This document shows positions 4,561 to 31,382 of a stretch of DNA of 64,000 nt, one piece after another (within the stretch, counting starts at the first letter, position 1; each line of letters begins with the position of its first letter). The stretch is from IMG/VR virus record IMGVR_UViG_3300033153_004214, positions 1-64,000 of that record. One strand, written 5' to 3'. Source of the stretch: a virus. A program made the position numbers and the translations under genes. The notes under the pieces were generated by a model. That model was not told where the DNA came from. It made no database searches and saw nothing but the letters and a program-made list of their open reading frames with translations.

Positions 4561-4713
4561 GGACTTGGTGATTAAAAAGAGGCTTGCGGACGTATATTCT
4601 TGTAGCAGCACAAGGGGGACGGCATGGTTGGTTGCATGGGGATAGGCCGGTAATGGACCGGCGGCTCCATAGTGGGAGCTTACCCTGCAGCCCCTGTCGA
4701 AGGGAGTAGTAGC

Positions 4714-13666: not shown

Positions 13667-13674
13667 GGGGCTAG

Positions 13675-14076
13675 ATGGCTAGTTATCAGTACCGGGGGAC
13701 TTCATTTCCTTGGGACGGCACCCTTGCTCATTTCATTGAGATCAAGGATGACCATGATATTCTTAGAACATCCTTGTTGATGATTTTGATGACTCGCAGA
13801 GGTGAACGTGTTATGCTTAGAGACTTTGGGTCTTTGCTCCATGAAAAACCATTTGAGCCGAACGATGTGACTCTAGCTCAGGACCTTATTTCAGAGCTTA
13901 GAGATGAAGTACAGAAGTGGGATGATCGTATTGGTATCAAGTCCTTAGATATCCAAGCCGTAGACAACATGCTCCAAGCGCGGGTTATCTATTACAATGC
14001 TAAGGACCCGTTGCAGGTCAGGCAGGAACTTGAATCGTATATTGAAATAGGTGCGCAGGACATTACCATAGCGTAG
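13675..14076 (+). CDS. Baseplate wedge protein gpW/gp25-like
   Basis: Contains DHDILRTSLLMILMTRRGERVMLRDFGSLLHEKPFEPND...ELRDEVQKWDDRI, which matches the GPW_gp25 family pattern. Confidence 0.85.
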   Translation: MASYQYRGTSFPWDGTLAHFIEIKDDHDILRTSLLMILMTRRGERVMLRDFGSLLHEKPFEPNDVTLAQDLISELRDEVQKWDDRIGIKSLDIQAVDNMLQARVIYYNAKDPLQVRQELESYIEIGAQDITIA

Positions 14077-14086
14077 GAGGCGTCAC

Positions 14087-16114: not shown

Positions 16115-18274
16115 ATGGCCATTTTCAGAAATACAGGTGTAGACCCTGCAGATATTCCTGATCAAACCTCTGTCCCCGGTGAGCCGGGGGTGGTGGTGCG
16201 CGTTGGCCCCCCGGGTCCTCAAGGTCCTGAAGGTCCCCAAGGTGAACGGGGTCCGATGGGTGCGGATGGGCCACAAGGTATTCAAGGTCTTCAGGGTGCC
16301 ACCGGTGCTACCGGTGCCACTGGGGCCAAAGGTGATCAGGGTGATGCTGGGCCGGGCCAGCCATGGCAGATACTTGATCCAGCAAGTGCTCTCACCGTTG
16401 AAGAGGCACTTGCTGGTGCTGTAGCTGGAGACATCTTCTACCTCCCTGCTGGGACTTATCAGCTTGGGACCTTTGATTTGTCTGTATCGAATATTCGTGT
16501 GGTGGGAACTCCCGGAGCCATCATAGAGATTCCTACTAATGACTATCTAAGTATCACTGGTCATAATGTGCGTTTTGAGAACTTGACATTCAAGTTCACT
16601 GCTGCCGCAACGCCTTCTTACTCAATCACATTGGGTGGCTACGAGAATGTTCTTGATCGGTGTGTCTTTGAGAAAGGTTCGACTACCTACGCCCCAAAGA
16701 CCTTGTTCCGTTTTGCGGATGCTTCGTGGGGCAATTCTGTTACGAATTGCAACATCTATCAAGTGAACAATCCAACGGTTGTCTGTACTCTGTTTGACTT
16801 TGGTGTTTCTGATAATACATCTGGCCACCAGGTGGCCAACAATCATATCGAAGGGGCAGGTCCTAACTACACTGTTACTTTGACAGTATTTAAGATGACA
16901 CAGAGTGCCGGTACCAGTTATGGTACTATCATTGAGGGTAACCATATTGTTGTTCAAGATGACCGGACTATTGGGTTGGTTCCTTTCACTGGTGTTACTT
17001 TCAACGGCAACACATGGGATGCTTCTAATCTCGGTGTACCAACTATCTTCACGAAGTTTATTGATTTTCCGGATACCGCTGTCAGCAATGTTCGCATTGA
17101 AGGAAATTATGCACAGAACTGTCGTTTCTTCATCACTGGTAGCATGAACGCATGGTCTTCTGTAGTTATTATTGGTAATACTATGGAAGGTTACGACCAA
17201 GGCTCACATTTCTTCTCCGTTACTATGACTGCTGGTTCGGAGAATATTTCGATTGTTGGTAACGTAGCCCATGGTCTGTATGGTGACGGCATTTCTCTTA
17301 ATCTTGGCAGTAGTGCTTACATTTTGGAAAGTTTTGTAATCTCGGGCAACTCAATGGATGCTATTGGGTTGGTCACAACTACTGGTATCAAGTTGTACTA
17401 TACTAGTGCAACCTTGAGGAATGTTTCGATAACGGGTAACACACTATACGGCTTCCCTGTGGGTATAGACGTAGATGATCAGTCAGTTACTATTCATAGA
17501 GTTGGTCTTTCTATCGTAGGTAACTCTTGTTACGACTGTGGTACCCACTGCCTTCGTCTAACAAATTGTTCTTGTGCTACGGTTACCGGTAACATATTTG
17601 AGGGAGATGGAAGCACTTACGGTATGTTACTTGATGGTGTGACGCAGTGTACTTTCATTGGTAATACGATAGACCACTGCGGTTCTACAGGTATTGATGT
17701 TGGTGGTGGGGACGCTGAAGAGTGCGTATTCATTGGTAACGTGGGTGGTCCGAATCAAACTTTTCTGGTTGTCAATTGGGCACCTCTTAAGAATAAGAAT
17801 CTTTGGTGGGATAATGGCACTGAGGGACCTGCCCAACACCATAAACTTAGGACGAGTGGCTTAAGCAGTGATACAAACAGTAATGCTTGGAAGGACGATA
17901 CTGTCCTTCGTTTCTGGGCGTGGGCTGGAGAGTACTGGGAGTTTGAATTCAATGTATTTGCTGTTATGGTTGGTGGTGGCGTTTCAGGACAGCAGTTTTC
18001 CATTAACGGCCCTGCTATCACCAATGTGAAATTTCAAACTCGTGTCGAGGATACGGCTCCTAGAAGCTTGGGTGTGTTCACCGCGTTGCGTGGTGCGACC
18101 TCTGCTTTTAGTACAGATACGACAAATCTCCATGTTAGGATAAAGGGTTACATCCAAGTAAGTACATCTGGGTATGTGTCTTTGAGCTTTCGAACACCGT
18201 CCGCTGGGGTTGGTGAGTATGTAACTGTAAATCCGGGTTCTAATGTGGCTGCGAGGCGCGGTTTTACAGGATAG
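16115..18274 (+). CDS. Tail fibre with collagen-like G-X-Y repeats and a right-handed beta-helix domain
   Basis: Contains [51 protein letters not shown], followed by many beta-helix rungs ([63 protein letters not shown]). Confidence 0.75.
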
Positions 18275-18287
18275 AAAGGAAGTATTC

Positions 18288-18692
18288 ATGTCTGAATCAA
18301 AAATCAAGCAACGAATCATTCAGGTCCGAGAGTTTCCTGTCTTCTCCATGGAAAGTCTCAAGTGGATCATGGGTCTATTGACCTTTTTGGGTGTTGCGTT
18401 TGGGGTGCTATGGACATGGCAAGACAGGCAGGATGACGCTACAATGGCTGTGGGTAGGAAAGTCAATCATAACGCCACCATTCTGGAGGAGCACGTCAAG
18501 CAGTCTGAGAAGACTTTCGATGGTATCCACGAGACGCTCAAGGAGCAGAAACAGGTCACTGACAGAACCAAGGAAGCCTTGATAGGGGTTCAGAAGGAAT
18601 TGGAGTTCATACGGCGAAGCAACGGGCACAGCGGAGGACCCTTGGATTTGCCTCTTGTAGTCATACCGCCGGACGAACCGCTGAGTCAATGA
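18288..18692 (+). CDS. Small membrane-anchored coiled-coil protein
   Basis: ATG 18288 follows SD aaaggaag. It has one TM helix (WIMGLLTFLGVAFGVLWTW) and then a helical segment. Confidence 0.45.
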   Translation: MSESKIKQRIIQVREFPVFSMESLKWIMGLLTFLGVAFGVLWTWQDRQDDATMAVGRKVNHNATILEEHVKQSEKTFDGIHETLKEQKQVTDRTKEALIGVQKELEFIRRSNGHSGGPLDLPLVVIPPDEPLSQ

Positions 18693-18699
18693 TTTTGTC

Positions 18700-18728
18700 T
18701 TGACAGCGGGTATACGGTGCGGTAGTAT
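18700..18728 (+). promoter_or_regulatory. Sigma70-type promoter TTGACA-17-TAGTAT
   Basis: It lies in the 62-nt gap before the gene at 18755. The TTTTGTCTTGACA upstream context is shared with the other promoters in the window. Confidence 0.55.
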
Positions 18729-18754
18729 ACGCCGTATCGAAAGGCGATTAATTC

Positions 18755-19924
18755 ATGCCGGTGGGCGATTACAATCTCTACCAATACCTACCGTCCTATA
18801 TTCGTTTCAGGGACTCTAGGGAGAATGTAGACGCCGATGGTGGCCGTCCTGTTTTGGAGAAGCTTGTAGAGCTTATCGAGACGGAGACGGGGCTTACGTC
18901 GGATTTGATTACTGGCCTCATCACTAATATCGATGTTGATACGTGTCCACTGAGGTACATCGATTACTTGGCATGGCTCCTTGGAGAGCAAATACCCGGG
19001 GGTTGGAGTGATACAGATCGTAGGGAATTTCTTCGAGTCCTAGCTGATCTCCTCAAGCTGAAGGGTACCCATCAAGGTTTCGAGAAACGAGCAGCTTTTG
19101 CTGGGGAGAAGGCCGCTCGTTTGATCGAGTTGTTCAAGCACGAACTCTACGAACAATACATCTATTCACGAACCTCCAGTAGCTATTTTCCATACAAGTC
19201 TGCAAGAGTGGATGTCGCTCGGGTGGTGTGCGATACCTCTTGCGAATCCTTCTGCGAGTACCAGCAGGAACTAGATTATTTGACGCCGAAAGAGGGGCAG
19301 GCTCTGATCGATGAGATTGGAGAGACGTTACCCATCCATGTTCTTGTTCGCAAGTTAGCCATCCCGGTCGATATCTCTGATCAGTTCTCTACGCCTGCTG
19401 ATTCAATAGCTGGTTGCCTCATGTCGTGCCAAGTCTATTGTGAGGCAGGTTGCGAGGAAGAGGCACAGGTCTATGGTGGTTCAGAATGTCAGGCACGTAT
19501 TGGGAACAGTTTCCCTACAACGTTCGATACATTCCTCGTGACTACTGTTTGCGTGAGCTATTGTGAATCCGCGTGTCAGACTTGCTGTGAATGTGGTGAA
19601 GAGGGCACGTGTGAAACTGTTTGTGAGACGACTTGTCAGGCTACTTGCGAGGACCTTTGTCAGGAAGCCTGTATGGTGCAGGGTTGTCAGACGGATTGCC
19701 AATCAGGCTCCTGTCAAGAGGGGTGTCAGACCTCCTGTCAAGATGCTTGTGAGTCTGGGTGCGAGCCTATGCTTGAGGAAGGTTGTACTCAGTGTGAGAC
19801 TGCCTGTCAAGCGGCATGTGAGGCAGTGTGCCAAGTTACTTGTGAAACGGTTTGTCAGGATGCTTGTGAGCTTGAATGCCAGACAGGTTGTACGACTGCA
19901 TGCGAATTGGCGGTACAGACATGA
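18755..19924 (+). CDS. P2 gpI-like baseplate/tail protein with a cysteine-ladder C-terminus (paralogue 1)
   Basis: The N-terminal YQYLPSYIRFRD..LEKLVELIE..IDVDTCPLRYIDYLAWLLGE..W..RREFL..LLKLKGTHQGFE matches the Tail_P2_I family pattern. The last 128 aa contain 30 Cys (hand count), mostly as C-[EQ]-x-x tetrads. Confidence 0.7.
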   Translation: MPVGDYNLYQYLPSYIRFRDSRENVDADGGRPVLEKLVELIETETGLTSDLITGLITNIDVDTCPLRYIDYLAWLLGEQIPGGWSDTDRREFLRVLADLLKLKGTHQGFEKRAAFAGEKAARLIELFKHELYEQYIYSRTSSSYFPYKSARVDVARVVCDTSCESFCEYQQELDYLTPKEGQALIDEIGETLPIHVLVRKLAIPVDISDQFSTPADSIAGCLMSCQVYCEAGCEEEAQVYGGSECQARIGNSFPTTFDTFLVTTVCVSYCESACQTCCECGEEGTCETVCETTCQATCEDLCQEACMVQGCQTDCQSGSCQEGCQTSCQDACESGCEPMLEEGCTQCETACQAACEAVCQVTCETVCQDACELECQTGCTTACELAVQT

Positions 19925-21144
19925 CCGATCTATATAGATATTTGCCAAACTTTCTTCGGGCGAGGGATGCCTTCTATTCCGAAGGTCTTGATGAACCCGG
20001 TGACGACCCCATCTTGAAGCGGCTGGTCGAACTTATTGCGGACCAGTTTGATGAAACACATGAACTCATTCAGGAAATGTTCAAGATCACTGATACTGAT
20101 GAGGTGCCACCTGAGTATTTCAAGCATCTCTCTTACCTTATCGGTACTATGGTCGGTAGCGATGTCAATGAGGACTTTGCTCGTTACCTGATGCGGAATC
20201 TTGTCTACTTCTATAAGATCAAGGGTACTCACGAAAGTTGGCGGGTTAGTTGGACCCTACAGGGCGAGGCACCTCCCATTGTCCATGAGCTTTGGAAGCA
20301 AATACCGCAGGAGATCAAGAACTACAGTCTCGAAGAATCGCAGCAATTCCCTCTGAAATCGGCTCGTGTAGATTTTGGTGTATGCTCAAGTTCCTGCGAG
20401 TCTTTCTGTGAGACAACCTGTGAGTATTCGTGTGAGGTGGGTGATGAGACAGGGGACCTTGTTACCCGGACAGAAGGCAAGCGTCTTATCGGTCTTGTGG
20501 ATGATCAACGACCTATTCATGTGATCCTCCGTAAGGAAGTTTTGGATGTGCCGTTGCAGGACGGCATGGAGTTTCCAGAGGACATGATAGGCAACTTCCC
20601 TGTATCCTATGATGTAGATGTTTGGAAGGGCAGCGAGATTATTGGAGAACCTGAGGACGAATGGTTCTCCGGGCTGGATAGACTTGATGTTAAGGTGACT
20701 TGTGTCAGCGCCTGTGAGAGTGCTTGTCAGGGCTGCTGTGAGATTGATTGTGAGTGCGGTCCCTGCGAGCACACTTGCCAAGTAGGTAGCTGCGAGTTGA
20801 GTTGTACGGAGTCTTGCGAGGCCAATTGTGAATGGTCTTGTGAGAATACATGTCAGTTTGGTTGTACTAGTGCTGGTGCGGAAGGCCCGGGTGCCTGTCT
20901 TACTGATTGCCAGACTGAGTGCCAAGTTGATTGCCAGACTGAGTGCCAAGCTGATTGCCAGACTGAGTGCCAAGTTGATTGCCAGACTGAGTGCCAAGCT
21001 GATTGCCAGACTGAGTGCCAAGCTGAGTGTCAAGCTGAGTGTCAAGCTATCTGCCAGACTGAGTGTCAAACATTAACTTGTCAATTACAGGGTTGTGAAA
21101 TGGGGGGTTGTCAAACCTATTGTATGCATATTTTGCAAGAGTAA
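19921..21144 (+). CDS. P2 gpI-like baseplate/tail protein with a cysteine-ladder C-terminus (paralogue 2)
   Basis: ATG 19921 overlaps the upstream TGA (ATGA). The N-terminal LYRYLPNFLRARD..LKRLVELIAD..FKHLSYLIG..FYKIKGTHESW parallels paralogue 1. The last 151 aa contain 35 Cys (hand count), including 14 uninterrupted tetrads (CLTD CQTE CQVD CQTE CQAD ...). Confidence 0.7.
   Translation: MTDLYRYLPNFLRARDAFYSEGLDEPGDDPILKRLVELIADQFDETHELIQEMFKITDTDEVPPEYFKHLSYLIGTMVGSDVNEDFARYLMRNLVYFYKIKGTHESWRVSWTLQGEAPPIVHELWKQIPQEIKNYSLEESQQFPLKSARVDFGVCSSSCESFCETTCEYSCEVGDETGDLVTRTEGKRLIGLVDDQRPIHVILRKEVLDVPLQDGMEFPEDMIGNFPVSYDVDVWKGSEIIGEPEDEWFSGLDRLDVKVTCVSACESACQGCCEIDCECGPCEHTCQVGSCELSCTESCEANCEWSCENTCQFGCTSAGAEGPGACLTDCQTECQVDCQTECQADCQTECQVDCQTECQADCQTECQAECQAECQAICQTECQTLTCQLQGCEMGGCQTYCMHILQE
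20905..21072 (+). repeat. Coding tandem repeat: 5 x 24 nt (gattgccagactgagtgccaag[t/c]t) followed by four 12-nt degenerate units
   Basis: Units were read at 20905, 20929, 20953, 20977 and 21001; they are identical except for one t/c position. They are followed by gagtgtcaagct x2, atctgccagact and gagtgtcaaaca. Confidence 0.95.
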
Positions 21145-21161
21145 TACCAAAGGGGGGCGGG

Positions 21162-23537
21162 ATGGATCAGTACTTTCAGCTTACCAAGGGTTGTGGTGGT
21201 TATCCGGCTAAAGCTCCAGCAGAGCCAGAGTTTGTCAAGTATGACTTTAGGGGTAGGCATTATGTATGGGACCCCAACTCTATGGTGCTTGCTACGTATG
21301 AGGGTGAAATCCCTGAGATGCATCCTGTGGAGTGGAAGCCAACGTTTCGTCTTGCTAACGCCCCTGCTTGCCCGCACCTCGTTCTTGAGTTGACAGATGC
21401 GTGCAATCTTGCGTGTTCCTACTGTGTACCACCTGATTCACTAATAACTATGTCAGACGGTACGACTCGGCAGATAGGTAGCATACTTGTTGGTGACAAG
21501 GTGCTTGGTTTCAATGAAAGAAGTGCAAAAGGCAAGCATACTCGTTATGAAGAAGCTATTGTGCAGCGAGTTCTTAGGCGGCGCAGTAATTTGGTAAAGA
21601 TTACACTGGATAACGGTAGTACCTTAGTGAGTACACCAGAGCATCCTTGGTTCACAGGTCGATCTTTTGTTCCTCCACGTGTGGGTACCACTGTGTGGCA
21701 AGGGTTGCCAGCGCCAGAAGGTCCGTTATTCACCGAGGATTATTGGTTAGGTTGGTTGCAAGGTTTGGCTGCCGGGGGCGGTACATTTGTTGTTAAGGAA
21801 TACGGTTCTTACAAACGAAAGAATACCGTCCGTAAGCGTAGGTTGCATACTTGGTTTAGGCTTGCGTTGAAAGACGAAGAATTGATTGATCAGTTTTCGC
21901 GGGTAGCTGACCGGTTTGGTTGGACTCTGCATACATGTACACACGAAGGGTTACCGGCACTTCGTGTAGGAAAGGCTTCTGTTGTATTTGGGTTGATGGA
22001 ATCACCTGCTGAAGAATCTGATGAGTATGTTAAAGGATGGTTGGCAGGATTCTTTGATGCAGAAGGTTGCATTTCTGGTGGTTTGTGGTCTATAAGCCAA
22101 AACAAGGGTGAGCACTTGATTCGGTGCGTGGAGTATCTGCATCGGTTGGGTTTCAAAGTTCATGTTGACGATTATCGTAAGTGTCAGCGTGTTCGATTGC
22201 TTGGTAAATCTCAGTCTGCACGGTTTATTGCTATGATGCATCCGCAGTGTTTCAGAAAACGAAATTACTTACTTAATAAGACTGTGTATGGTACTAAGGC
22301 TAAGATAATCGCGGTCGAGGATATAGGTGAAGGTGACGTTGTTAACTTAACGACTTCTTCGAGGACCTATGTATCACAGGGTGCTTTGTGCCATAACTGC
22401 TTTGTTTCTGAGGATAATGCGAGGAGTAGGGCAAAGAAGACCATGACCTTTGAGACTGCTGTTGATGCGATCTCGAAGTTCTCCCTGCGGGTTGCTGCGA
22501 AGCCGACGCCATCACAGCCTGTTTCAATAGGATTCTTTGGTGGTGAACCGTTGGTGGCGGGTGCTCTTTTGCGTAAGATTGTGAAGTATGCGGAGGGGGT
22601 TTTTGGGGCGGGGTCTTGCCGGTTTCACTTGACGACCAACGCTACCCTTATCAACGAGGAATGGGCACAGTATATCAACAAGCACAACTTTTCTCTGATC
22701 GTCAGTATTGATGGACCTCAGCATGCTCATGATGCCACACGTAAGACTCATAGTGGTGACGGTTCTTACAGCAGGGTTATCAAAGCGTTGGAGTTGCTCC
22801 GAACCTATGCACCCCGGGCTATCAAAGCTACCACGTTGCGAGCTACCTTCACTCCGAATAGTAATTGTAGTTTGGTGGATCGGCTCAAGCACTTGAACCA
22901 CCTCTGCGATAGGGGCTTTGGTACTCATGTCTCCGTAGAACCGGCTTTTCTTGGGGAGCGTGTATGTTTTGACAAGTCTAAAGCAGGAGACCTCACGCCT
23001 GACCCTACTGTGCAAGAGCAGTGGTTGCAGGAAGCGCATGAAGCGGCAGACTGGTATATTGAAAGGATTCGAGAAGGCCAGAACCCTCCTCGCTATCATC
23101 ATTTTAGTATACATATTAAACGATTGTTGCAGGGGTATCCGCAGCCTACTGAATGCGGTGCAGGTAAAGGTTATTTTTCAGTTGGGGCAGATGGAACTAT
23201 TTATGCTTGTCATCGTGAAACAGCAACTATGATAGGTCATCTTGATTATGGCATTGATCACGAGTTGGCTGCACCTTGGCAGGATAATAGATATTACGCT
23301 CGTAAGGGTTGTACGGATTGTTGGATGCGGAATGTTTGTGGCGGTGGCTGTCGTGAGGTTGCCATGGTACAGAATGGTGATCTATCAGTTCCAGTTTCTT
23401 CGGAGTGTGCTTTTAAGGAACTCTGGTTCAAGGAGGCAGCACACATCATTGCTGAACTCAAGACGACGGAGTGGGTTCATCGAATGCCTTTCCTCAAGCA
23501 GGTTGTTGGTCTGGTCTCTCGGCGGCGAGTACGTTAG
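21162..23537 (+). CDS. Radical SAM / SPASM-domain enzyme (peptide/protein-modifying maturase type), interrupted by an intein
   Basis: ATG 21162 follows SD aagggggg. The extein reads ..LELTDACNLACSY|C FVSEDN.. (CX3CX2C is restored after splicing). The SPASM motif is C-x13-G-x4-C (ECGAGKGYFSVGADGTIYAC) plus C-x2-C-x5-C-x3-C (CTDCWMRNVCGGGC) plus a distal C (SSECAF). Confidence 0.8.
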   Translation: MDQYFQLTKGCGGYPAKAPAEPEFVKYDFRGRHYVWDPNSMVLATYEGEIPEMHPVEWKPTFRLANAPACPHLVLELTDACNLACSYCVPPDSLITMSDGTTRQIGSILVGDKVLGFNERSAKGKHTRYEEAIVQRVLRRRSNLVKITLDNGSTLVSTPEHPWFTGRSFVPPRVGTTVWQGLPAPEGPLFTEDYWLGWLQGLAAGGGTFVVKEYGSYKRKNTVRKRRLHTWFRLALKDEELIDQFSRVADRFGWTLHTCTHEGLPALRVGKASVVFGLMESPAEESDEYVKGWLAGFFDAEGCISGGLWSISQNKGEHLIRCVEYLHRLGFKVHVDDYRKCQRVRLLGKSQSARFIAMMHPQCFRKRNYLLNKTVYGTKAKIIAVEDIGEGDVVNLTTSSRTYVSQGALCHNCFVSEDNARSRAKKTMTFETAVDAISKFSLRVAAKPTPSQPVSIGFFGGEPLVAGALLRKIVKYAEGVFGAGSCRFHLTTNATLINEEWAQYINKHNFSLIVSIDGPQHAHDATRKTHSGDGSYSRVIKALELLRTYAPRAIKATTLRATFTPNSNCSLVDRLKHLNHLCDRGFGTHVSVEPAFLGERVCFDKSKAGDLTPDPTVQEQWLQEAHEAADWYIERIREGQNPPRYHHFSIHIKRLLQGYPQPTECGAGKGYFSVGADGTIYACHRETATMIGHLDYGIDHELAAPWQDNRYYARKGCTDCWMRNVCGGGCREVAMVQNGDLSVPVSSECAFKELWFKEAAHIIAELKTTEWVHRMPFLKQVVGLVSRRRVR
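21423..22397 (+). mobile_element. Intein (325 aa, with LAGLIDADG endonuclease) inserted in the CX3CX2C motif of the radical SAM gene
   Basis: Block A is CVPPDSLITMSDGT, block B is LVSTPEHPW, the LAGLIDADG motifs are WLGWLQGLAAGGGTF and WLAGFFDAEGCI, and the C-terminus is GALCHN followed by +1 Cys. Confidence 0.85.
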
Positions 23538-23547
23538 GAGTCAGTAA

Positions 23548-24597
23548 GTGCGTCATGCGGTCATCTGTCTTCGTGGACTACTAGGCGACTTCATCAGACT
23601 AGGTGGAGTGCTACGTCCCTTCATCGAGAGAGGTGACGAGGTTCATGTGTTCACAAGGAAGGATTTCACACCTGTTACGATTCTGCAGCACATCAAGGGT
23701 CTTTCAAGCTATCACCTGCTCACAGACATCCCTATTGACATTAATAGCATAGGTCAGTGCGACTTCCCTGTTAATCTACAAAGGGTTCCGTGGCTTTACA
23801 TGTTGGGTTTACTACGGATTGAGCACGCGGTGAATGTTTCTCATTTGATTGGTAACGATGGTGTTAATCATGAGTCGGTGGTCGTTAGTCCGCAGGAGTA
23901 TTTAGCCTCTTCATTGGGCGTACAGTATAATGACATCAACGTGGTTGATTGGGTAGTGTTTCCTGCTGAAGAATTGATGGCTAAGGTATGGTTGCGTCAG
24001 AATGCTCAAGGTGACGGTCCTTTGGTTGTGCTTCAAGTCCATTCTACTTCTGTCCAACGTCGGTTGCCGGTAGATACTGCCACTGCTCTTTACGATGCGT
24101 TGGTGAAGAGGGGTTACCGAGTTGTGGTTGCGTATCTTCCAAAGGACACTGCTGATTACACAGGATTTGTTATTCGACGTGCTAAGACGTTAGGGGGATT
24201 GCCATGGGGAGTGTCGTGCGCAGTGCTCAAGCAGGCGAGCTTGTGTATCTCAGTTGATACCGCAATTCTTCATATGGCAGCAGCCTTTGGTCTTCCTACT
24301 GTTGGTCTTTTTGGGCCGACTAATGGTGATGTCATTATGCGTCATTATCCAACAGCAGTTAATGCTGAACTTCCTGTGTCGATTCCGTGTAGGAATTGCT
24401 ACTATCGTTCGAGTTTTGGTGCTTCTGAGGAGTGCGCCAAGGCTGGATGTACCGTAATGGGTGCTCATACAGTAGAGTCGATCTTGACAGCAGTGGATTC
24501 GTGTTTGGGTGCGCGTTCGGATGTATCTTCTGATGTTGCTGTTTCAGTGGGTAGTTTGAGTGCAGCCAGCAGACAGAAGGTGCTGGGCAATGGTTAA
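23548..24597 (+). CDS. GT9 family (heptosyltransferase-like) glycosyltransferase with a C-terminal Cys4 motif
   Basis: Contains AVICLRGLLGDFIRL, LVVLQVHSTSVQRRLP and SVDTAILHMAAAFGLPTVGLFGPTNG. The Cys motif CRNCYYRSSFGASEECAKAGC (C-x2-C-x11-C-x4-C) lies at 24388-24450. Confidence 0.75.
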   Translation: MRHAVICLRGLLGDFIRLGGVLRPFIERGDEVHVFTRKDFTPVTILQHIKGLSSYHLLTDIPIDINSIGQCDFPVNLQRVPWLYMLGLLRIEHAVNVSHLIGNDGVNHESVVVSPQEYLASSLGVQYNDINVVDWVVFPAEELMAKVWLRQNAQGDGPLVVLQVHSTSVQRRLPVDTATALYDALVKRGYRVVVAYLPKDTADYTGFVIRRAKTLGGLPWGVSCAVLKQASLCISVDTAILHMAAAFGLPTVGLFGPTNGDVIMRHYPTAVNAELPVSIPCRNCYYRSSFGASEECAKAGCTVMGAHTVESILTAVDSCLGARSDVSSDVAVSVGSLSAASRQKVLGNG

Positions 24598-25588
24598 GAA
24601 AGCAGTAGTTCTTCGAGAGGCCGGGGGTCTTGGAGACGTTCTCCAATTGGGGTCCACTTGCGATCTGCTGAAGAATAGTGATTATCATGTATCCTTGTAC
24701 ATAATGAATGATCCTGAACTCATTGCTCTAGCTGCTGGTTTCAAGAATGTTGATGCGCTGCATCCTGTTCATGTCGTGAACCATATGAGAAGACCACGTA
24801 CTGTGAAGAGATACCGTTCATATGAATACTTGAATGACTTTGTAGAAGAAGCTGCGCATGCGGATGTTGTAGTAGATGCGTGGTGCCCTGCAGTACGGCA
24901 TGAAATACAGCATGCTCGTAAAGGTGTCTGTCCAACCCTCTCTAGGGCGCAGCTTTTCGCTGCTGAAGCTGGGTTTGATCCTTCCATGGTCCGACCTGCT
25001 GAGATAGACAAGACTCGCATGATGGCGGGTAACGGAGGTTTTGCTGACACTATACGTGGTATGTATGGTGATGAATGGATTCTGGTTCATTTGAAAGCAA
25101 GGGAACCAGCCCGCGCAGTTCCTGATGAACAAGCAAACGCCTTAATCTACCTGCTTGCTCAGAAGTGGACCGTAGTTGTCTTCGCGTACCCTGAACATCA
25201 ATGGGGTCAGATGCTTCAGCATGATAACGTCCATTGGTTTACTGCCTCGCAAAGTCAGCTAAATCACATCCGCTCTGTTTATGCTGCTTTTGCTCTATGC
25301 GAGCAGGCTATGGCAGCAGTGGTCGTTGACAGTTTTCTGCTCCATGTCTCTCAGTCTGTTGGAACACCGGCAGTGCTGTTGACTGGCCCTACTGATCCGG
25401 TACCCTTGACGGCCCATTACTCAGATGTTCACTGGGTCGAAAGGAGTATGGACAAGGCTCCCTGTGGTTCATGCTACTATCAGGCAAACATGGGTTTTTC
25501 CACAGCTTGTCGAGATAGAGGTTGTTTTCATCTATCAAGATTCAGCATGTCCAAGCTTATAGCCAAGGTTGAGGAGGTCGTAGGATGA
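24590..25588 (+). CDS. GT9 family (heptosyltransferase-like) glycosyltransferase with a C-terminal Cys4 motif (second copy)
   Basis: ATG 24590 overlaps the upstream stop. Contains VVLREAGGLGDVLQ, ILVHLKAREPARAVP and VVDSFLLHVSQSVGTPAVLLTGPTDP. The Cys motif CGSCYYQANMGFSTACRDRGC, with identical spacing, lies at 25463-25525. Confidence 0.7.
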   Translation: MVKKAVVLREAGGLGDVLQLGSTCDLLKNSDYHVSLYIMNDPELIALAAGFKNVDALHPVHVVNHMRRPRTVKRYRSYEYLNDFVEEAAHADVVVDAWCPAVRHEIQHARKGVCPTLSRAQLFAAEAGFDPSMVRPAEIDKTRMMAGNGGFADTIRGMYGDEWILVHLKAREPARAVPDEQANALIYLLAQKWTVVVFAYPEHQWGQMLQHDNVHWFTASQSQLNHIRSVYAAFALCEQAMAAVVVDSFLLHVSQSVGTPAVLLTGPTDPVPLTAHYSDVHWVERSMDKAPCGSCYYQANMGFSTACRDRGCFHLSRFSMSKLIAKVEEVVG

Positions 25589-26874
25589 AAGCGCAGCTTG
25601 CCATCCTCACCTGTAACCGGCCAAGTGTTCTTGAACTGTGTTTGCTGAAGCTGGGCCTTACAGATAAGCATAGGGAAGTCTTGGATGTCGTTATCTACGG
25701 AAACGATGCAGCCCTTTCTGGGGAGGCAGTAGCGAACGCATTCAATGTGCGGTTTGTTGATTTTCATGATGAGTACCCTTGGTCTGAAGACCGAATGGTC
25801 TCAGCCCAGATGAGCCTTGGTCGTGCCCGGCAGGATATCGTTCGGAATTTCTGTATTGATGAGAGATTTGGTCCGAATGATTTTCTGGTTATGCTGGATG
25901 ATGACATCATGGTTACTGCTGATACGATCTTGGAGGCCATAGAAGACTTTAAGCTGTTCTCTAAGTCCACGAAGGTTGCTTGTGTGGCGCTACACCCCTT
26001 CAAGAAACGTCTCAGTCGTTCTAGCATCCAGTTAGGGAAGAAGCTCTTCAATTTCTTCGACTATACAGGTGAGTGTGCCATGATTTGGCAGCGGCGTATG
26101 TTTTCCATAGTCGGCAATCACTTTGGGCTTATCGAAGGAGGCCATGGGGACAAGCAATTCGCAAACGCCCGTGAGCACGGTGCCCTACTCACAAGGTTCC
26201 ACCCACCCTACGAAATGCAGCATGTCGGCTTCACGCCCCTCTGCTCATCTCAGGTCTTTGGGCATCTGGAGCGAAGGCCCGGTTGGACTCGACAACCCTT
26301 GAAAGACTACACCGGGACACGTATATTCTTTGAGGATGAACTGACTATTTGGCGATCTCAGGGATTGGAAGCCCTGAAGACTATACTGAAGGAGGGAACG
26401 ATGATAGGGACAGAGAAGGCCGCGCCGATTGAGGATCGTTTCCCCAAGGCGCGGGGAGAAGTGAACATCCAGAAGGTTCGCAAGTCTGACGGCGAGGTTG
26501 TCGAGGATATCACCACTGACAACCTTGTCGTTGACAAGGCGAAGGAGATCATGGCTCACCTGCTCGCTGGAGACGATTCCGACAACTACAAGGTGAGCAA
26601 GATGACCTTTGGGACCAACGATGATCCGCCCACGCCTGAGGACCTCGTGGTCAAGACTCCGATCACCCCCGTGAAGCCTATTGCTTCTGTGGAGTACCCG
26701 AACGACTCTTCGGTGCGATTCATCGTGACGCTGGATCAGGACGAAGCCAATGGATTCCCGATTGCGGAGGCGGGTCTTCAGGCGCAGAACGGTCTCGTCG
26801 CTCGTGTTTCCTTTGGTCCGCTCACGAAGGATAGCGACTTCATCTTCATCTTCCGCTGGACGATATACTGGTAG
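25585..26874 (+). CDS. GT-A fold (GT2-like) glycosyltransferase fused to a C-terminal beta-rich domain of unknown function
   Basis: The N-terminus has AILTCNRPSVLELCL and the DxD motif FLVMLDDDIMV. The C-terminal ~150 aa (..FPIAEAGLQAQNGLVARVSFGPLTKDSDFIFIFRWTIYW) match no enzyme motif I recognise. Confidence 0.55.
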   Translation: MKAQLAILTCNRPSVLELCLLKLGLTDKHREVLDVVIYGNDAALSGEAVANAFNVRFVDFHDEYPWSEDRMVSAQMSLGRARQDIVRNFCIDERFGPNDFLVMLDDDIMVTADTILEAIEDFKLFSKSTKVACVALHPFKKRLSRSSIQLGKKLFNFFDYTGECAMIWQRRMFSIVGNHFGLIEGGHGDKQFANAREHGALLTRFHPPYEMQHVGFTPLCSSQVFGHLERRPGWTRQPLKDYTGTRIFFEDELTIWRSQGLEALKTILKEGTMIGTEKAAPIEDRFPKARGEVNIQKVRKSDGEVVEDITTDNLVVDKAKEIMAHLLAGDDSDNYKVSKMTFGTNDDPPTPEDLVVKTPITPVKPIASVEYPNDSSVRFIVTLDQDEANGFPIAEAGLQAQNGLVARVSFGPLTKDSDFIFIFRWTIYW

Positions 26875-26891
26875 TGCATAGTAGATATATC

Positions 26892-26920
26892 TTGACATAT
26901 CCGGGCATACCGGGTATCAA
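26892..26920 (+). promoter_or_regulatory. Sigma70-type promoter TTGACA-17-TATCAA
   Basis: The context is cTTGACAtatccgggCATACCGGGTATCAA. The CATAC(C)GGG spacer element recurs in the promoters at 37171 and 61312. Confidence 0.4.
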
Positions 26921-26999
26921 GATATATGGGGTAACACTGGTGCGTATCGCGTATGGGCCTATATGGTCACAGGTCGTTTCGGCGTCCACACAAGAGTAC

Positions 27000-28415
27000 A
27001 TGCTCCTTCGCCGCGTCCTCCTGACGCCCGAGGGTGTGTACTTGTTGCGGCCCGATTGGTCCTTCTTGACCGGTCTGGTGGGCCGCATCAAGGCAGCAGG
27101 TATTCCTGTTGAGGGCGAGCCAGTCTTCCCAGACCTGTCATCAGGCATTTACCCTGACATGCTTGAAGGTGTGACACTGAGAGACTATCAGTTGGGGGGT
27201 CTTGGGTTGTTTGCTGGTGTGGGTCGGGGTACTGCAGCGCACGCGACAGGTGCTGGGAAGTCTGAGTTTCTAGCAGCCGTTATGAAGTTGATAGGACCTC
27301 CATCCTTGTGCGTTGTAGATACCACAGCCTCTGCGGGACAGTTGGCGAAGCGATTACAGTCACGAGGCATTGGCTCAGTTCGGCATGTTCATGGGCCGAA
27401 CAAGCGCCTCACTGAGCATAATGTCATGGTTATCAATACCGCCATCAATATGCTGCGGCGGAACACGAAGAACTTCCAGACCTTTCTGCGGGACCTACGA
27501 CTACTATCTTTTGACGAAGTACATCATCTTGGTAACGCACCAACATGGCAGGAGATAGCTCTTTCGTGTTCAGCGCACTATCGACTAGGTCTTAGCGCCA
27601 CTCCCTACGATGACGAACCATCACAAGCTGATATGCTCTTGGACGGTCTGATCGGTCCTGTGTTCGATCATATCCCCTCCAAGGAGCTACGAGATCGAGG
27701 CTACCTGTCAGAGCCATACGCTTTCATCATTCCGGTTGCCCATGGGCAGAGGGTCCCCCGAGGCATTCAGGATTGGAATGAGATCGAAAAGAGGGCTATA
27801 GTTGAGCATGAGTACCGTAACGCTCTGATCACGACTATATGTGCTCGGATTGTTGCCAGCGAACCTACAGCCAAGATATTGGTCTTGGTGCGGCGAATAC
27901 AGCACGGTGAAACACTACTTGATGCGCTGGATGACTGTGGCATCTCCTGTGTCTTTTCATCAGGCGGTAAGCAGGCGAGGTTCCCGGGGCGTGTACTTCA
28001 TCGCATTCCCTATGAGAGCATCTGTGAGAGGTTCGAGGACGGCGACTGGAACGTTTTGATCGGGAGCCGGGTCTATGACGAGTCTCAAGACATTCCGGGC
28101 ATTACAGACCTCGTATTGGGGTCTGCGGGTAAGAAGACACGAAGGTTGTTGCAGCGGCTCGGGCGTGGGGAACGGGTGGCCCCCGGGAAGGACCATGTTC
28201 GAGTTTGGGACTTCTATGATTCACAGCATTGGGCGACACGGAATCAGTCGGTCAAGAGGCGGGACGCGCTGAGAGAGGAGGAGATTCATATCATTTCGAG
28301 TCCCATGTTGATCGAACGTGTACTCACTGGGCAGTGTTCGCCTGCCAGTATCATTGCAGCAATTAGGGGGACGGGAAATGAAGATACGAACGGTCACAGT
28401 GGGGGCGTCTCATAA
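27000..28415 (+). CDS. SF2 DEAD/DEAH-box DNA helicase
   Basis: Contains LRDYQ, Walker A HATGAGKSEF, Walker B LLSFDEVHHLG, LGLSATPYD and motif VI QRLGRGER. The start is uncertain (ATG 27000, GTG 26940 or GTG 26874); a promoter-like site lies inside the longest version. Confidence 0.75.
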   Translation: MLLRRVLLTPEGVYLLRPDWSFLTGLVGRIKAAGIPVEGEPVFPDLSSGIYPDMLEGVTLRDYQLGGLGLFAGVGRGTAAHATGAGKSEFLAAVMKLIGPPSLCVVDTTASAGQLAKRLQSRGIGSVRHVHGPNKRLTEHNVMVINTAINMLRRNTKNFQTFLRDLRLLSFDEVHHLGNAPTWQEIALSCSAHYRLGLSATPYDDEPSQADMLLDGLIGPVFDHIPSKELRDRGYLSEPYAFIIPVAHGQRVPRGIQDWNEIEKRAIVEHEYRNALITTICARIVASEPTAKILVLVRRIQHGETLLDALDDCGISCVFSSGGKQARFPGRVLHRIPYESICERFEDGDWNVLIGSRVYDESQDIPGITDLVLGSAGKKTRRLLQRLGRGERVAPGKDHVRVWDFYDSQHWATRNQSVKRRDALREEEIHIISSPMLIERVLTGQCSPASIIAAIRGTGNEDTNGHSGGVS

Positions 28416-28635
28416 GCTGTCCATACCGGGGCAGTACGAGACGATCAACCCGAGCGTGAGTATCACTGCAGATGTTGGGGAGAATGAAGACCTCAGCACC
28501 GTGGTGGATGAACTCAAGATTCAGGTTGAAGCGGAGTTCTGGAGGCTGGCCTACACTGACTATGCCACCGCACTTCAGCGAGCCGCAGCAGGCACTCAGA
28601 ACTGGCTGGCTGCGAAGTTTCCTCGGCAACCGTAA
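28378..28635 (+). CDS. Small hypothetical protein (85 aa)
   Basis: ATG 28378 follows SD gggggacggga. Its stop overlaps the start of the DnaB-like gene. Confidence 0.4.
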   Translation: MKIRTVTVGASHKLSIPGQYETINPSVSITADVGENEDLSTVVDELKIQVEAEFWRLAYTDYATALQRAAAGTQNWLAAKFPRQP

Positions 28636-31382
28636 TGGAAGGATATCTTCACATGGGTGAGGTTCAGGATAATGCTGTCTATCCGTATGGTTTCGACTTC
28701 CAACACGCCCTGATGGCTATGGCTGTGCAGGACCCGGGGTTCCTCGCAAGCTATGAAGATATCATTGAACCAAGGTACTTTGAGTCTCCAGTCTTACAGA
28801 CGGTCAGTAAGATCATTCTTGGTTACTACAAGTCTTACGCAGAGCCGCCTGCACAGCAGACTTTGAATCAGTTGGTGTACGAACATGTCTCCGGCCTGCC
28901 CGCTAATATGCAGATGCAGATAGATCAGTTCTATCAGTTCGCGGCGAGTCTCTACACAACGGAGATTAGAAACAGTCAGTTTATCAAGGATCGGGCTGTT
29001 AAGTTTGCGCAGCGGCAGGCGTTCAAGCATGCTCTCATTCATGGTATAACCATTCTCAAACGGGATGGTGACATCGAGGACGCTCAAGACCTTGTTGATC
29101 GTGCGATGACCATTGGTATTCGTCGGGATATGGGTGACGATCTTTACGAGGTGATCGAGAGCCTTCCTCACAAGTGGGCGGAGATGGTCGGTGGTGCTGG
29201 GAAAATTCCAACGTGCTTTCCTATCCTGAACGAAGCCACCTATGGTGGGGTGCGTAAGGGTGAACTCTTCATCATTCAAGGCATTCCAAAGTTTGGGAAG
29301 TGTTTAGGTCCTGATGCTCGTGTATGGTCGCCCTACGGTGGTTATACTAGAATGGTTGATTTCCCCTCCCAAGGTTGGTCAGTTGGAGAAGTGGCTAACG
29401 GTACTGATGTGATTCCAATTTTGGCAAAGGCCGCTAACGGCAGAAAGAAAGTGTATGATGTCTATTTGCGTTCAGGCCGGGTGATACGACAAATAACAGG
29501 GAACCATCCTGTGCGTACTTGTGATGGATACACTCCAGTGAGTAAATTATCAAAGGGAGACGCGGTAGCTGCTCCTAATAGATTACCGCTTGAGGTTTCG
29601 CAGGCATGGGAGTACCCGGAGCTTGCTTATGCTTTGGGTGTTTTCTTGGGTGACGGTTGTTTGATGGCAGATAGCTCGATCATAAGTGCTGAAGAGGGTG
29701 TGGATGATGTACCTAATGCAGTGCTGTCAGTTTTGCCTGAAGAGTGGAGCATCGAGGTTAACAGGACAGGTAGCCATGTTCGCTTTGTGAACAAGCTAAG
29801 AAATGGTAAAAGGCCCTGTAGTAGACGTAATTTGCTTACTGAATGGTTGAGATCGTTAGGTGTGTTTGGGATGTCTGCTGCCGCTAAGCGGGTTCCAAAG
29901 ATAGTATGGCAGGGTGGTTGTGATGTTGTTCGCGGGGTGTTGGCTGGGTTGTGGGATACTGATGGTTGGGTGCAGTCAAAGGGAACTGGTTGCGCGGAGT
30001 ACTGTACTGTTTCTGATTACCTAGCGCACGATGTTCTTACGATGTTACACGTTCTTGGTATTTATGCTGTTGTGCGTAGGAATTATGCTGATAACGCTTG
30101 GTTAGTTCGTGTTACTGGGAGAGATAGCCTTAGACAGTTTGGAAAACAAATACGTTTGAGGTACAAGAAGAAGGCGGATAGGTTGCAAGCTATTCTAGCA
30201 AAACCGATTAAGCGATCTACCGAGCGTGGTTCGTACTGGCAACGGTTGCCAGTGCAGTATCGTCGATTTTTGGGGAGTCAGCAGCGGAGTAAATCGTGCC
30301 GGGTATCTAAGGATATGTTCAAGCAGCAGGTAGCTGATTCTTCACAACATAGCTTTGCCTTGTCGGTGTTTTGGGATGAAGTTGTCGATATTAAGCCTGT
30401 TGGTAGGATGCAGACGTATGATCTACAGGCTTCTAAAGAGTCACAATCTTTTGTAACTGAGGGTGTTGTGGTGCATAATTCAACCACTCTAATCAGTTTG
30501 GGTGGTTATGCTATTCGCTGTGGGTACAAAGTCCTTCATGTTACTATCGGTGACCTGAAGCAGTTTGACGTTGAGTTGAAGTACGCTACTTACCTCGCGC
30601 AGCAGAATATCAAGGAAATGATGTACGGTGGTGATGCGTATGCGTTTGCTCGGTTGAAGGATGCTCATATCAAACCGAACCAGCTTCGTATCAAGTACTT
30701 TAGTCCGTACTCGCTCAGCGTCCCCCAGCTTCGATCTTACATTTCTTGGTTGCGGACGAACTCGGGCTTCTTCCCTGATCTGTTGATACTGGACTATCCT
30801 GACAAGATGTACCGGAAGCACGAGGACTCTTACTCGGAGATGGGCAAAATCTACATGGAGATCAAGACCCTTCTCGATGACTTTGATATCGCTTGCTGGG
30901 CGGCGAGCCAGAGTAACAGGGGTGCAGCGGATGCAAAGGTGAATCGAGCCGCCAACGTTGCTGAGTCATGGGACAAGATCGCCAATGCTGACGGAATCAT
31001 TCCGTGTTCTCAAACTGACGAGGAACGAGCACAAGGCAAGGCTCGTCTCTATATTGAGATGGTTCGCTTTGGTATAGACCATTGGACACAGCCTGTTCAT
31101 ATCAATTACGGGATGAGTACAGTCTCCTCCGTGGGCAACATAGATGCCTATACCAATCTACCTGAGCAGTTAAAGGCAAAGGCGGCGGAGTTTTGTAACC
31201 ACTATTCGACGCAGCGAGTGGAGGTGGCAGCGCAACAACACCAGCAGATGCAGGCAGCGCAGGCGAGCCTTCCTGAGGGAACCTATGTTCGGGAGGATGG
31301 TTATTACGGTATGAACCGTTGGGATGGCCAGCGGTACACGAAGTATGTATGGGACGGTCAACAGTGGCACGCTACGAACTAA
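28635..31382 (+). CDS. DnaB/gp41-like replicative helicase, interrupted by an intein in the P-loop
   Basis: The extein Walker A reads IIQGIPKFGK|STTLISLG and Walker B reads LLILDYPD. There is a RecA-like C-terminal domain. ATG 28653 is an alternative start. Confidence 0.8.
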   Translation: MEGYLHMGEVQDNAVYPYGFDFQHALMAMAVQDPGFLASYEDIIEPRYFESPVLQTVSKIILGYYKSYAEPPAQQTLNQLVYEHVSGLPANMQMQIDQFYQFAASLYTTEIRNSQFIKDRAVKFAQRQAFKHALIHGITILKRDGDIEDAQDLVDRAMTIGIRRDMGDDLYEVIESLPHKWAEMVGGAGKIPTCFPILNEATYGGVRKGELFIIQGIPKFGKCLGPDARVWSPYGGYTRMVDFPSQGWSVGEVANGTDVIPILAKAANGRKKVYDVYLRSGRVIRQITGNHPVRTCDGYTPVSKLSKGDAVAAPNRLPLEVSQAWEYPELAYALGVFLGDGCLMADSSIISAEEGVDDVPNAVLSVLPEEWSIEVNRTGSHVRFVNKLRNGKRPCSRRNLLTEWLRSLGVFGMSAAAKRVPKIVWQGGCDVVRGVLAGLWDTDGWVQSKGTGCAEYCTVSDYLAHDVLTMLHVLGIYAVVRRNYADNAWLVRVTGRDSLRQFGKQIRLRYKKKADRLQAILAKPIKRSTERGSYWQRLPVQYRRFLGSQQRSKSCRVSKDMFKQQVADSSQHSFALSVFWDEVVDIKPVGRMQTYDLQASKESQSFVTEGVVVHNSTTLISLGGYAIRCGYKVLHVTIGDLKQFDVELKYATYLAQQNIKEMMYGGDAYAFARLKDAHIKPNQLRIKYFSPYSLSVPQLRSYISWLRTNSGFFPDLLILDYPDKMYRKHEDSYSEMGKIYMEIKTLLDDFDIACWAASQSNRGAADAKVNRAANVAESWDKIANADGIIPCSQTDEERAQGKARLYIEMVRFGIDHWTQPVHINYGMSTVSSVGNIDAYTNLPEQLKAKAAEFCNHYSTQRVEVAAQQHQQMQAAQASLPEGTYVREDGYYGMNRWDGQRYTKYVWDGQQWHATN
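29301..30479 (+). mobile_element. Intein (393 aa, with LAGLIDADG endonuclease) between the K and S of the DnaB-like Walker A motif
   Basis: Starts CLGPDARVWS, has block B ITGNHPV and LAGLIDADG motifs LAYALGVFLGDGCL and VLAGLWDTDGWV, and ends GVVVHN followed by +1 Ser. Confidence 0.85.

Follow-up and report, generated by a model that had tools for sequence, protein, structure and literature searches.

Thioether formation by radical S-adenosylmethionine (rSAM) enzymes with a SPASM domain has been described for peptides and for a protein subunit. PapB makes freyrasin, a product with six Cys-Asp thioethers at C-beta, CteB joins Cys to the C-gamma of Thr, NxxcB joins Cys23 to Asn20 in NxxcA, and QhpD joins Cys to the C-gamma of Glu and the C-beta of Asp in a protein subunit (PMC8326336). 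In addition, runs of Cys-x-x-x beside an rSAM/SPASM maturase have been curated in silico as CXXX-repeat systems (TIGR04114 repeat, TIGR04115 maturase, TIGR04117 target, TIGR04119, PF27846). The same neighbourhood is found in the viral DNA analysed here, positions 1 to 64,000 of the IMG/VR record IMGVR_UViG_3300033153_004214 (the window, 64 kb), where two gpI-like baseplate proteins ending in cysteine ladders, gpI1 and gpI2, are encoded ahead of an rSAM/SPASM enzyme and three glycosyltransferases (GTs), namely GT9a, GT9b and ORF6 (Table 1). That ladder and enzyme are paired in many unrelated phages suggests a covalent modification of virion proteins, by a chemistry of the type known until now from small bacterial peptides. 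Judged from sequence relationships and genomic neighbourhoods, the enzyme very probably acts on the ladders; that it does so by forming thioether links is a reading that we favour with moderate confidence.

Manual counts in the earlier sequence-only reading of this DNA had given 30 Cys in the final 128 aa of gpI1 and 35 Cys in the final 151 aa of gpI2, and both proved exact. Nearly all Cys of the two proteins stand at four-residue spacing, and the last 160 aa hold 22 CxxxC pairs in gpI1 and 26 in gpI2, the maxima reached in 20000 shuffles of the same residues being 14 and 17, respectively. In gpI1 an N-domain (aa 1-158) is followed by mini-ladders at aa 159-167 and 221-233 and then by the main ladder, and gpI2 carries a mini-ladder at aa 170-186; these mid-sequence mini-ladders, present in both proteins, are conserved. 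The residue directly after Cys is E or Q in 86% of cases in gpI1, 85% in gpI2 and 82% in 20 homologues, the conserved tetrad being C-[EQ]-[TS]-x with T or S at the third position in about half of the tetrads. The ladder Cys columns and several of the E/Q columns are invariant over 15 gpI1 homologues with 28-46% identity. The sequence-only reading had further stated that in the repeats an Asp or Glu stands before almost every Cys, so that thioether donors and acceptors would alternate. This is true of the gpI2 array only: D/E directly before Cys amounts to 47% in gpI2, 0% in gpI1 and about 4% in the 20 homologues, and its regular occurrence is confined to a recent tandem array in which each 24-nt unit encodes two tetrads, CQTECQ[AV]D. 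The D/E-Cys alternation was accordingly rejected as a feature of the family, the conserved partner being the E/Q directly after Cys.

The N-domains of gpI1 and gpI2 are paralogous (phmmer E = 2e-21), as had been read from the sequence; gpI-like N-termini had also been proposed for the pair. PF09684 is matched by gpI1 with 21.1 bits (cut-off 20.6), the Pfam scan of gpI2 gave no match (PF09684 included), and TIGR02242 is matched by gpI1 with 34 bits (E = 2.5e-8) and by gpI2 with 18.4 bits, both under the cut-off of 51.85. An AlphaFold2 (AF2) model of gpI1, with a mean predicted local distance difference test score (pLDDT) of 56, shows the ladder as helical; in the models of gpI1 and ORF6 (mean pLDDT 56-57) the only usable parts are the N-domain of gpI1, the GT-A domain of ORF6 and the tendency of the ladder to form a helix. 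The top 12 PDB matches of the gpI1 model in Foldseek are all chains of contractile baseplates (phi812, a Streptomyces contractile injection system, A-1(L) and pyocin R2), with non-significant E-values of 0.06-2.8. Conservation of the gpI paralogues as a pair suggests that the two ladders may associate. At locus L013 (117-1574; loci compared with the window carry the prefix L) a gpI-like protein continues from an only short ladder into a collagen-like G-x-y run, and the C-terminal module of gpI may thus be exchangeable.

The spliced enzyme of 466 aa (N-extein ending at 21422, C-extein at 22398-23537) matches PF04055 Radical_SAM with 52.7 bits (cut-off 29.5) and has the cluster motif CNLACSYC. 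By regular-expression search its seven-Cys SPASM set is complete (C-x12-G-x4-C, C-x2-C-x5-C-x3-C and a distal C); a complete set had already been read from the sequence, with the first spacing given as x13 instead of x12. These motifs align with the SPASM region of CteB, the nearest solved structure (5WGG), which is matched with 2e-34 over residues 90-436, through both auxiliary-cluster motifs; the PDB match to anSME (2e-16) covers the N-terminal half only. Among the NCBIfam models the best match is QhpD (TIGR03906; 197.6 bits, 3.1e-58, cut-off 453) and the second best PapB (NF047865; 194 bits, 3.7e-57, cut-off 340), the latter with its whole 330-position model aligned. They are followed by the SCIFF maturase (TIGR03974; 168.9 bits, 2e-49, cut-off 425), the nif11 maturase (167.9 bits, 3e-49) and CcpM (160 bits, 9e-47), the last two also below their cut-offs, and all five matches span nearly the full length of the enzyme. 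The TIGR04115 'CXXX-repeat target family' maturase reaches 75.9 bits (cut-off 350). The anSME model (TIGR03942; 120 bits, cut-off 349) aligns with residues 96-242 alone, the sactisynthase RumMC model (122 bits) with the N-terminal core only, and the models of cyclophane-forming enzymes (70-98 bits) match in part. On these scores the enzyme would constitute a distinct clade inside the thioether-forming SPASM group and outside every characterised family. The check on its clade that the sequence-only reading had proposed thus came out in its favour: the enzyme does not fall with sulfatase-maturing or cofactor-synthesising enzymes, its best full-length matches being QhpD, PapB, SCIFF and CteB.

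As had been noted from the sequence, about 80 aa precede CX3CX2C, the number being exactly 80 when ATG 21162 is the start. These residues occupy the place of the peptide-recognition element of CteB, and alignment of the enzyme N-terminus with the N-domains of SCIFF maturases (hhalign) gave 26 columns with a probability of 84% and E = 8e-6. The region common to both is a beta-hairpin, F..G..fv.D.NS.

An enzyme of this kind could also modify the ladder by another rSAM reaction, be it sactionine formation (S to C-alpha), oxidation of Cys to a formylglycine or dehydro residue in the manner of anSME, C-C cyclophane formation or epimerisation. The score of the enzyme is under the curated cut-off of every characterised family, and its chemistry is therefore not confidently transferable; the anSME, RumMC and cyclophane models give partial matches that are nevertheless significant; and SCIFF peptides themselves were initially, and wrongly, taken to carry C-alpha links (PMC8326336). 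On the other hand, the top full-length matches, i.e. QhpD, PapB, SCIFF and CteB, are all formers of thioethers from S to C-beta or C-gamma, the anSME and RumMC matches do not extend past the N-terminal core, and the ladder contains neither the C/S-x-P/A-x-R sulfatase motif nor aromatic residues for cyclophanes. We regard a different reaction as unlikely and retain thioether formation as the preferred chemistry.

The association of ladder and enzyme was examined in both directions. In the forward test, 80 IMG/VR loci encoding relatives of the enzyme were searched within 10 kb for a ladder open reading frame (ORF), defined by at least five consecutive Cxxx tetrads. Such an ORF is present in 45 of the 80 loci, always on the strand of the enzyme and with a median gap of about 1 kb. 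The best 80 cellular loci, mostly of SCIFF type from Clostridia and Veillonella and with no more than 32% identity, served as control and yielded a single ladder. It belongs to the top match, a planctomycete metagenome-assembled genome (MAG) that encodes a 1391-aa J-like tail protein together with rSAM and GT9 genes. The reverse test used the DNA pattern (TGY SAR N6)x6, which stands for six C-[EQ]-x-x tetrads and makes no reference to the enzyme. The 80 matches listed for it (L088-L167) include 63 in another reading frame, which were filtered out, and 17 true ladder loci, of which 12 have enough flank to be judged; an adjacent rSAM gene is found in 10 of these 12. Ladders are therefore not mostly without an rSAM neighbour, and the sequence-only reading, which had made its proposal depend on this point, is borne out here. 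The 63 off-frame matches are 12-nt periodic repeats coding for different proteins with 4-aa repeats, several of them in giant-virus MAGs.

Furthermore, the ladder type tracks the enzyme clade in 46 of 48 pairs. C-[EQ]-x-x ladders go with window-like enzymes (20 of 21 pairs) and C-[ST]-G-x ladders with TIGR04115-like enzymes (26 of 27 pairs); the L062 enzyme, encoded on a viral contig, passes TIGR04115 itself (474 bits, cut-off 350), and the L046 ladder passes the cut-off of TIGR04114. The syntenic module of the window recurs in L001, L002, L003 and L288, with two gpI-ladder genes followed by rSAM, GT9, GT-A and/or the C-terminal domain of ORF6 (ORF6-C), and a helicase. Elsewhere ladders are fused to at least five unrelated protein types, each with an rSAM gene beside it: gpI-like and J-like proteins, a tail fibre (phrog_2631, 1e-31), a head decoration protein of Hoc-like type (9e-90) and a protein whose gene comes after that of the tape measure. 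The last type is represented in L005-L007 by a 512-aa ladder protein whose gene lies directly 3' of the tape-measure gene, with rSAM beside it, and in L004 a 590-aa membrane-anchored ladder protein adjoins the rSAM gene. A 407-aa CQ[TV][GS] ladder protein of L128 (IMGVR_UViG_3300008152_000003) has three rSAM/SPASM genes no more than 10 kb away.

These fusions bear on the question of whether the Cys-rich proteins are parts of the virion at all or, instead, precursors of small modified peptides, either toxins or peptides made on the ribosome and then modified post-translationally (RiPPs). The known targets of related enzymes are indeed small peptides, and some viral ladder ORFs are short (113-122 aa). 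However, the N-domains of gpI1 and gpI2 are gpI-like and their genes keep to a baseplate gene order; in L003 the gpI-like gene is directly 3' of gpJ, no second gpI gene being present there. Other ladders are joined to the tail-fibre and Hoc-like domains named above, and neither the ORF list nor the Pfam scan revealed a protease or exporter gene in the module of the window. A role as peptide precursors is thus highly improbable, and the ladder proteins are taken here as presumed components of the virion.

The gpI-plus-ladder profile found 1202 cluster representatives in metagenomes at E ≤ 0.001, including 119 at E ≤ 1e-30, and the search with the close gpI alignment returned two related loci only. 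Precomputed PF27846 matches comprise P0001 and P0002, with 98% and 84% identity to gpI1, as well as P0011, P0013 and P0018; TIGR04114 and TIGR04117 gave no match to gpI2 at E ≤ 1. Searches of GenBank phages by megablast with the region and by tblastn with gpI1 gave no match, tblastn with the enzyme gave only distant ones (≤31% identity), and no cultured model system with the module was found in these searches. A comparable ladder was not found in the inspected cultured matches, Ralstonia phage RP12 and Phass-1. In Phass-1 (OQ749652.1, L290 9459-9692) an unannotated 78-aa ORF directly after the rSAM gene has a short Cys-rich tail, CNTCNVGCDIQCRTCITCNSC, and may be a mini-version of the ladder system in a described gut phage.

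Several observations, in addition to the scores beneath the curated cut-offs, weigh against thioether formation on the ladders by this enzyme. The enzyme has no match to PF13186 (SPASM) at E ≤ 10 and no Pfam match to PqqD, and of the recognition element the beta-hairpin alone is detectable. The AF2 model of the ladder is of low confidence (pLDDT 55-78). L012 holds rSAM, GT9, GT-A and ORF6-C, with the 10 kb upstream free of ladders; in L124 and in L102, a locus of a giant-virus MAG, ladders occur with no rSAM gene in the available sequence; and the window-like enzyme of L011 is paired with a C-T-x-G ladder, from which it follows that the acceptor is not E/Q in every case. The association counts include near-duplicate loci and are not phylogenetically independent. 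With regard to glycosylation of the ladder, an extra methyltransferase (MTase)-GT9-GT2 gene of the window stands far from it.

If the ladder were unmodified, it might be stabilised by metal ions, or by disulfides that form once the cell has lysed, and the rSAM and GT genes would serve another purpose, possibly an unusual sugar on other virion proteins (the ORF6-C proteins) or a change of the host surface. The gene content of L012 fits such a separation, ORF6-C and GT9 are as constant in the clade as the ladder, and the period-4 stripes of Cys could bind metals along the fibre axis. Metal binding along the fibre axis, by His, is known from T4 gp37. Against this stand the many ladder-rSAM pairs with neither GT nor ORF6-C nearby (L004, L042, L044 and the TIGR04115-type loci), the co-variation of ladder type and enzyme clade, the outcome of the reverse test, and the placement of the enzyme in SPASM groups that modify peptides or proteins and not in sugar-modifying rSAM families. 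An unmodified ladder is consequently considered improbable, and modification of the ladder by the enzyme is the reading kept below. L012 (IMGVR_UViG_3300031772_000003) also encodes two ORF6-C domains, further GT-like genes and a second rSAM-like ORF at 3811-4650.

The rSAM gene is interrupted by an insertion of 325 aa that, by its motifs, is assigned as a class 1 intein with a LAGLIDADG endonuclease. It begins with Cys1 (CVPPDSL), contains a TPEH block and the LAGLIDADG blocks LGWLQGLAAGGG and LAGFFDAEG, and ends with LCHN followed by Cys; LAGLIDADG_3 is matched with 29.8 bits, and Hint and Intein_splicing are matched weakly. The joined extein reads CNLACSYC|FVSED and aligns without gaps to three intein-free homologues. 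Because the intein sits inside the cluster motif, the enzyme would be inactive before splicing. Homologous rSAM genes on other viral contigs carry inteins as well, and at different sites: two in L016 (9950-14410), one in L012 (9905-12343), at the ACHRE site, and one in L066 (4825-7209). This variation of insertion sites points to repeated intein invasion of the gene family. In the window itself, the 915-aa DnaB-like helicase (28635-31382) has Intein_splicing and LAGLIDADG_3 matches and the 994-aa large terminase (54785-57769) has a LAGLIDADG_3 match; both apparently contain inteins, which with the rSAM gene would make three intein-bearing genes in 64 kb.

Two GT9 enzymes and one GT-A enzyme had been named as the last three products of the operon, and this assignment holds. 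PF01075 is matched by GT9a with 43.5 bits and by GT9b with 25.1 bits (cut-off 22). Heptosyltransferase models match GT9a weakly, and the PDB matches are limited to weak ones with lipopolysaccharide heptosyltransferases; a role as TibC-like protein heptosyltransferases was considered for the GT9s and dropped, the PDB searches having given no TibC match. ORF6 has no Pfam match. On the basis of its AF2 model (pLDDT 80-89), the N-terminal domain is predicted to be a GT-A fold glycosyltransferase with a DxD-type motif: Foldseek gave 146 PDB matches at E ≤ 0.001, the best being GnT-I (1fo8; E = 3.6e-8, probability 1.0), with POMGnT1 and GlfT2 also found, and the LDDD motif is invariant in 6 ORF6 homologues. 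Fifteen domains homologous to ORF6-C occur in L001-L016. The ORF6-C profile weakly matches a domain that is repeated in a 'Baseplate hub' chain (PDB 9h4p, E = 0.0024), and the domain is probably virion-associated. With the motif EANGFPIxEAGL, it is also encoded on its own 3' of the rSAM/GT genes, in proteins of about 150 aa that frequently come as tandem pairs, in L002 (15293-15844), L008, L013, L014 and L015.

GT9b homologues are located 3' of rSAM in L001, L002, L003, L008, L010, L012, L015, L208 and L288, and GT9 follows rSAM directly in 10 loci of the clade, the planctomycete MAG included. In a siphovirus-type tail module, L005 (5581-7398; also L006 and L007) encodes a 605-aa rSAM/SPASM protein with a C-terminal GT2-like fusion, directly 3' of the gene for the 512-aa ladder protein; the GT2-like domain has DSD and ED motifs and a weak match to Glyco_tranf_2_3 (E = 2e-4). 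The GT9 adjacency, the L005 fusion and the T/S content of the tetrads link glycosylation to the system, with an acceptor that is presumed. It is nonetheless quite possible, though not our preferred view, that the glycosyltransferases are unrelated to the ladder and form a general set for virion glycosylation or host modification at the end of the tail module. Such a set would be in keeping with the MTase-GT9-GT2 gene ahead of the sheath gene, with the lack of GT genes in most ladder-rSAM pairs outside the clade and with the lack of similarity of the GT9s to TibC. It is less easily reconciled with the constant position of GT9 after rSAM in the clade, with the fusion of rSAM to a GT2-like domain in an unrelated module of siphovirus type, and with the T or S that stands third in about half of the tetrads.

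The window is part of an uncultured myovirus. All its long ORFs are on the + strand, and myovirus parts (sheath, tape measure and baseplate proteins) are encoded as well as helicases, DNA polymerase, terminase and portal; the closest cultured relatives of the sheath protein, from Bacillus phage SP-15 and Listeria phage LIS04, share only 36-38% identity. The ladder, rSAM and GT genes lie at the end of the tail module, the gpI-like genes being 3' of gpV-like/gpW/gpJ and separated from them by the tailspike gene and the 149-aa ORF. The P2 order of J followed by I, broken by these two genes in the window, is unbroken in L003. The six tightly packed + strand genes of the sequence-only reading are present (18755-26874). 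ATG 19921 of gpI2 forms an ATGA overlap with the gpI1 stop, and 18 nt separate the gpI2 stop from the rSAM ATG 21162, which is preceded by the ribosome-binding site AAAGGGGGG. The promoter reported ahead of the operon is present and ranks first (10 of 12) among 21 promoter-like sites in 14000-30000, yet this number is not above expectation (15.4 +/- 4.2 in shuffles), and the site is not significant alone.

Table 1. Coordinates of the ladder-enzyme module and of other features of the window
Feature	Position (nt)	Strand	Remarks
MTase-GT9-GT2-tetratricopeptide repeat (TPR) multi-domain protein, 820 aa	1108-3570	+	upstream of sheath gene
Tail sheath	4672-6225	+	
Tape measure	8876-10879	+	
gpV-like, gpW and gpJ baseplate proteins	12863-16114	+	
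Collagen/beta-helix tailspike	16115-18274	+	collagen-like N-terminus
Small ORF, 149 aa	18243-18692	+	between tailspike and gpI1
Sigma-70-like promoter candidate, TTGACA-17-TAGTAT	18700-18728	+	62-nt gap before gpI1
gpI1, 389 aa	18755-19924	+	39 Cys
gpI1 main C-[EQ]-x-x ladder	19550-19903	+	aa 266-383
gpI2, 422 aa from 19876	19876-21144	+	41 Cys; probable start ATG 19921
gpI2 main ladder	20701-21123	+	aa 276-416
Tandem array in gpI2 ladder	20903-21069	+	seven 24-nt units; Tandem Repeats Finder: period 24, 7.0 copies, 89% matches
rSAM/SPASM gene with intein	21108-23537	+	probable start ATG 21162
Intein, 325 aa, LAGLIDADG homing endonuclease	21423-22397	+	before third Cys of CX3CX2C
GT9a, 349 aa	23548-24597	+	
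GT9b, 342 aa from GTG 24560	24560-25588	+	probable start ATG 24590
ORF6	25585-26874	+	
ORF6 N-terminal GT-A-fold domain (predicted)	25585-26439	+	aa 1-285; LDDD motif; AF2 and Foldseek
ORF6 C-terminal domain, about 140 aa	26452-26874	+	phrog_5417 (E = 4e-20)

Taken together, these data are consistent with the following course of events. Splicing of the intein would restore the third cluster cysteine and thereby an active rSAM enzyme, which would modify the ladders of gpI1 and gpI2 in the cytoplasm of the host, either ahead of baseplate assembly or in the course of it. Its reaction would most likely be the formation of one thioether after another, from Cys sulfur to a side-chain carbon of a neighbouring acceptor. 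The conserved E/Q three residues before the next Cys ([EQ]-x-x-C) is the best candidate for this acceptor; in a helical ladder, for which the model is weak, the side chains of residues i and i+3 would lie on the same face. After Cys, one ladder class has E/Q and the other mainly S/T, all of them residues with an acid, amide or hydroxyl group, as is found beside the known acceptor carbons. If each tetrad supplied a single donor and a single acceptor, the ladder would become an unbroken chain of small covalent rings, which could act as a redox-insensitive substitute for disulfides and could form in the reducing cytoplasm. Since thioethers, unlike disulfides, could form there and would survive any environment, a phage-borne enzyme would have a plausible purpose. 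The two GT9s and the GT-A enzyme, constant followers in the clade, would probably glycosylate the same or partner virion proteins. The modification of the ladder by the enzyme, as first proposed, thus keeps its basis in genomic association and loses the donor/acceptor logic of D/E-Cys. In its widest form, the proposal is that Cxxx modules on exposed virion proteins of many phages are each turned by a dedicated rSAM/SPASM enzyme into tens of thioether rings, with glycosylation in some lineages; this general statement is put forward only tentatively.

Should the ladders be cross-linked, the known range of rSAM peptide chemistry, small secreted peptides and one dehydrogenase subunit, would come to include the proteins from which virus particles are built, as the first RiPP-type radical chemistry on virus structural proteins. 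The links would replace disulfides in a cytoplasm-compatible way, the resulting rods being rigid and resistant to proteases and to reducing conditions, and would offer a genetically encoded route to long, covalently stapled protein rods. Such a function would also explain the large and little-studied gpI-plus-ladder family and would provide a rationale for phage rSAM genes, which are often annotated as antibiotic or metabolic genes; a cyanophage rSAM maturase, for example, is listed as an 'antibiotic synthesis gene' (PMC12801897). The literature searches found no paper on the chemistry or virion context of CXXX-repeat systems, none on Cxxx ladders or on rSAM enzymes acting on phage structural proteins, and no report of a thioether in a virion protein or of a radical SAM enzyme acting there. 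The novelty claimed for the locus accordingly survives where the phage tail protein is concerned; Cxxx repeats beside a SPASM enzyme were already curated (TIGR04114/04115/04117, PF27846).

Compared with the curated CXXX-repeat systems, the enzyme of the window misses TIGR04115 and is nearer to QhpD and PapB, its tetrads are C-[EQ]-x-x and not C-[ST]-G-x, and its presumed target is a domain of a baseplate protein of 389-422 aa. Freyrasin resembles the ladder in that its substrate repeats a motif holding a Cys donor and an acidic acceptor, one of each; the presumed substrate in the window, however, is a protein domain with about 27-30 repeats and not a short peptide with six, and the candidate acceptor is a differently spaced E/Q. 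QhpD acts likewise on a protein subunit, QhpC of quinohemoprotein amine dehydrogenase, and not on a RiPP, whereas the window has no amine dehydrogenase genes and tens of repeats in a presumed virion protein. In NxxcA the acceptor, Asn20, precedes the donor, Cys23, by three residues, which is also the spacing of [EQ]-x-x-C in the ladder, but there it forms one link in a small streptococcal peptide, and the comparison with NxxcB is one of link spacing. CteB and the SCIFF maturases offer the nearest structure and share the N-terminal beta-hairpin with the enzyme, in which the helices of the recognition element are either absent or beyond recognition; SCIFF-type cellular loci, unlike the window, are without a ladder in 79 of 80 cases. 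Among viruses, the capsid chainmail of HK97 consists of autocatalytic isopeptide links, and mycobacteriophage virions can be glycosylated. Like the chemistry proposed here, these are covalent post-translational changes that make virion proteins robust or alter their surface. Ranthipeptide-like SPASM chemistry and Cxxx-repeat targets are thus already known, and what is new is their proposed combination with virion structural proteins and glycosyltransferases.

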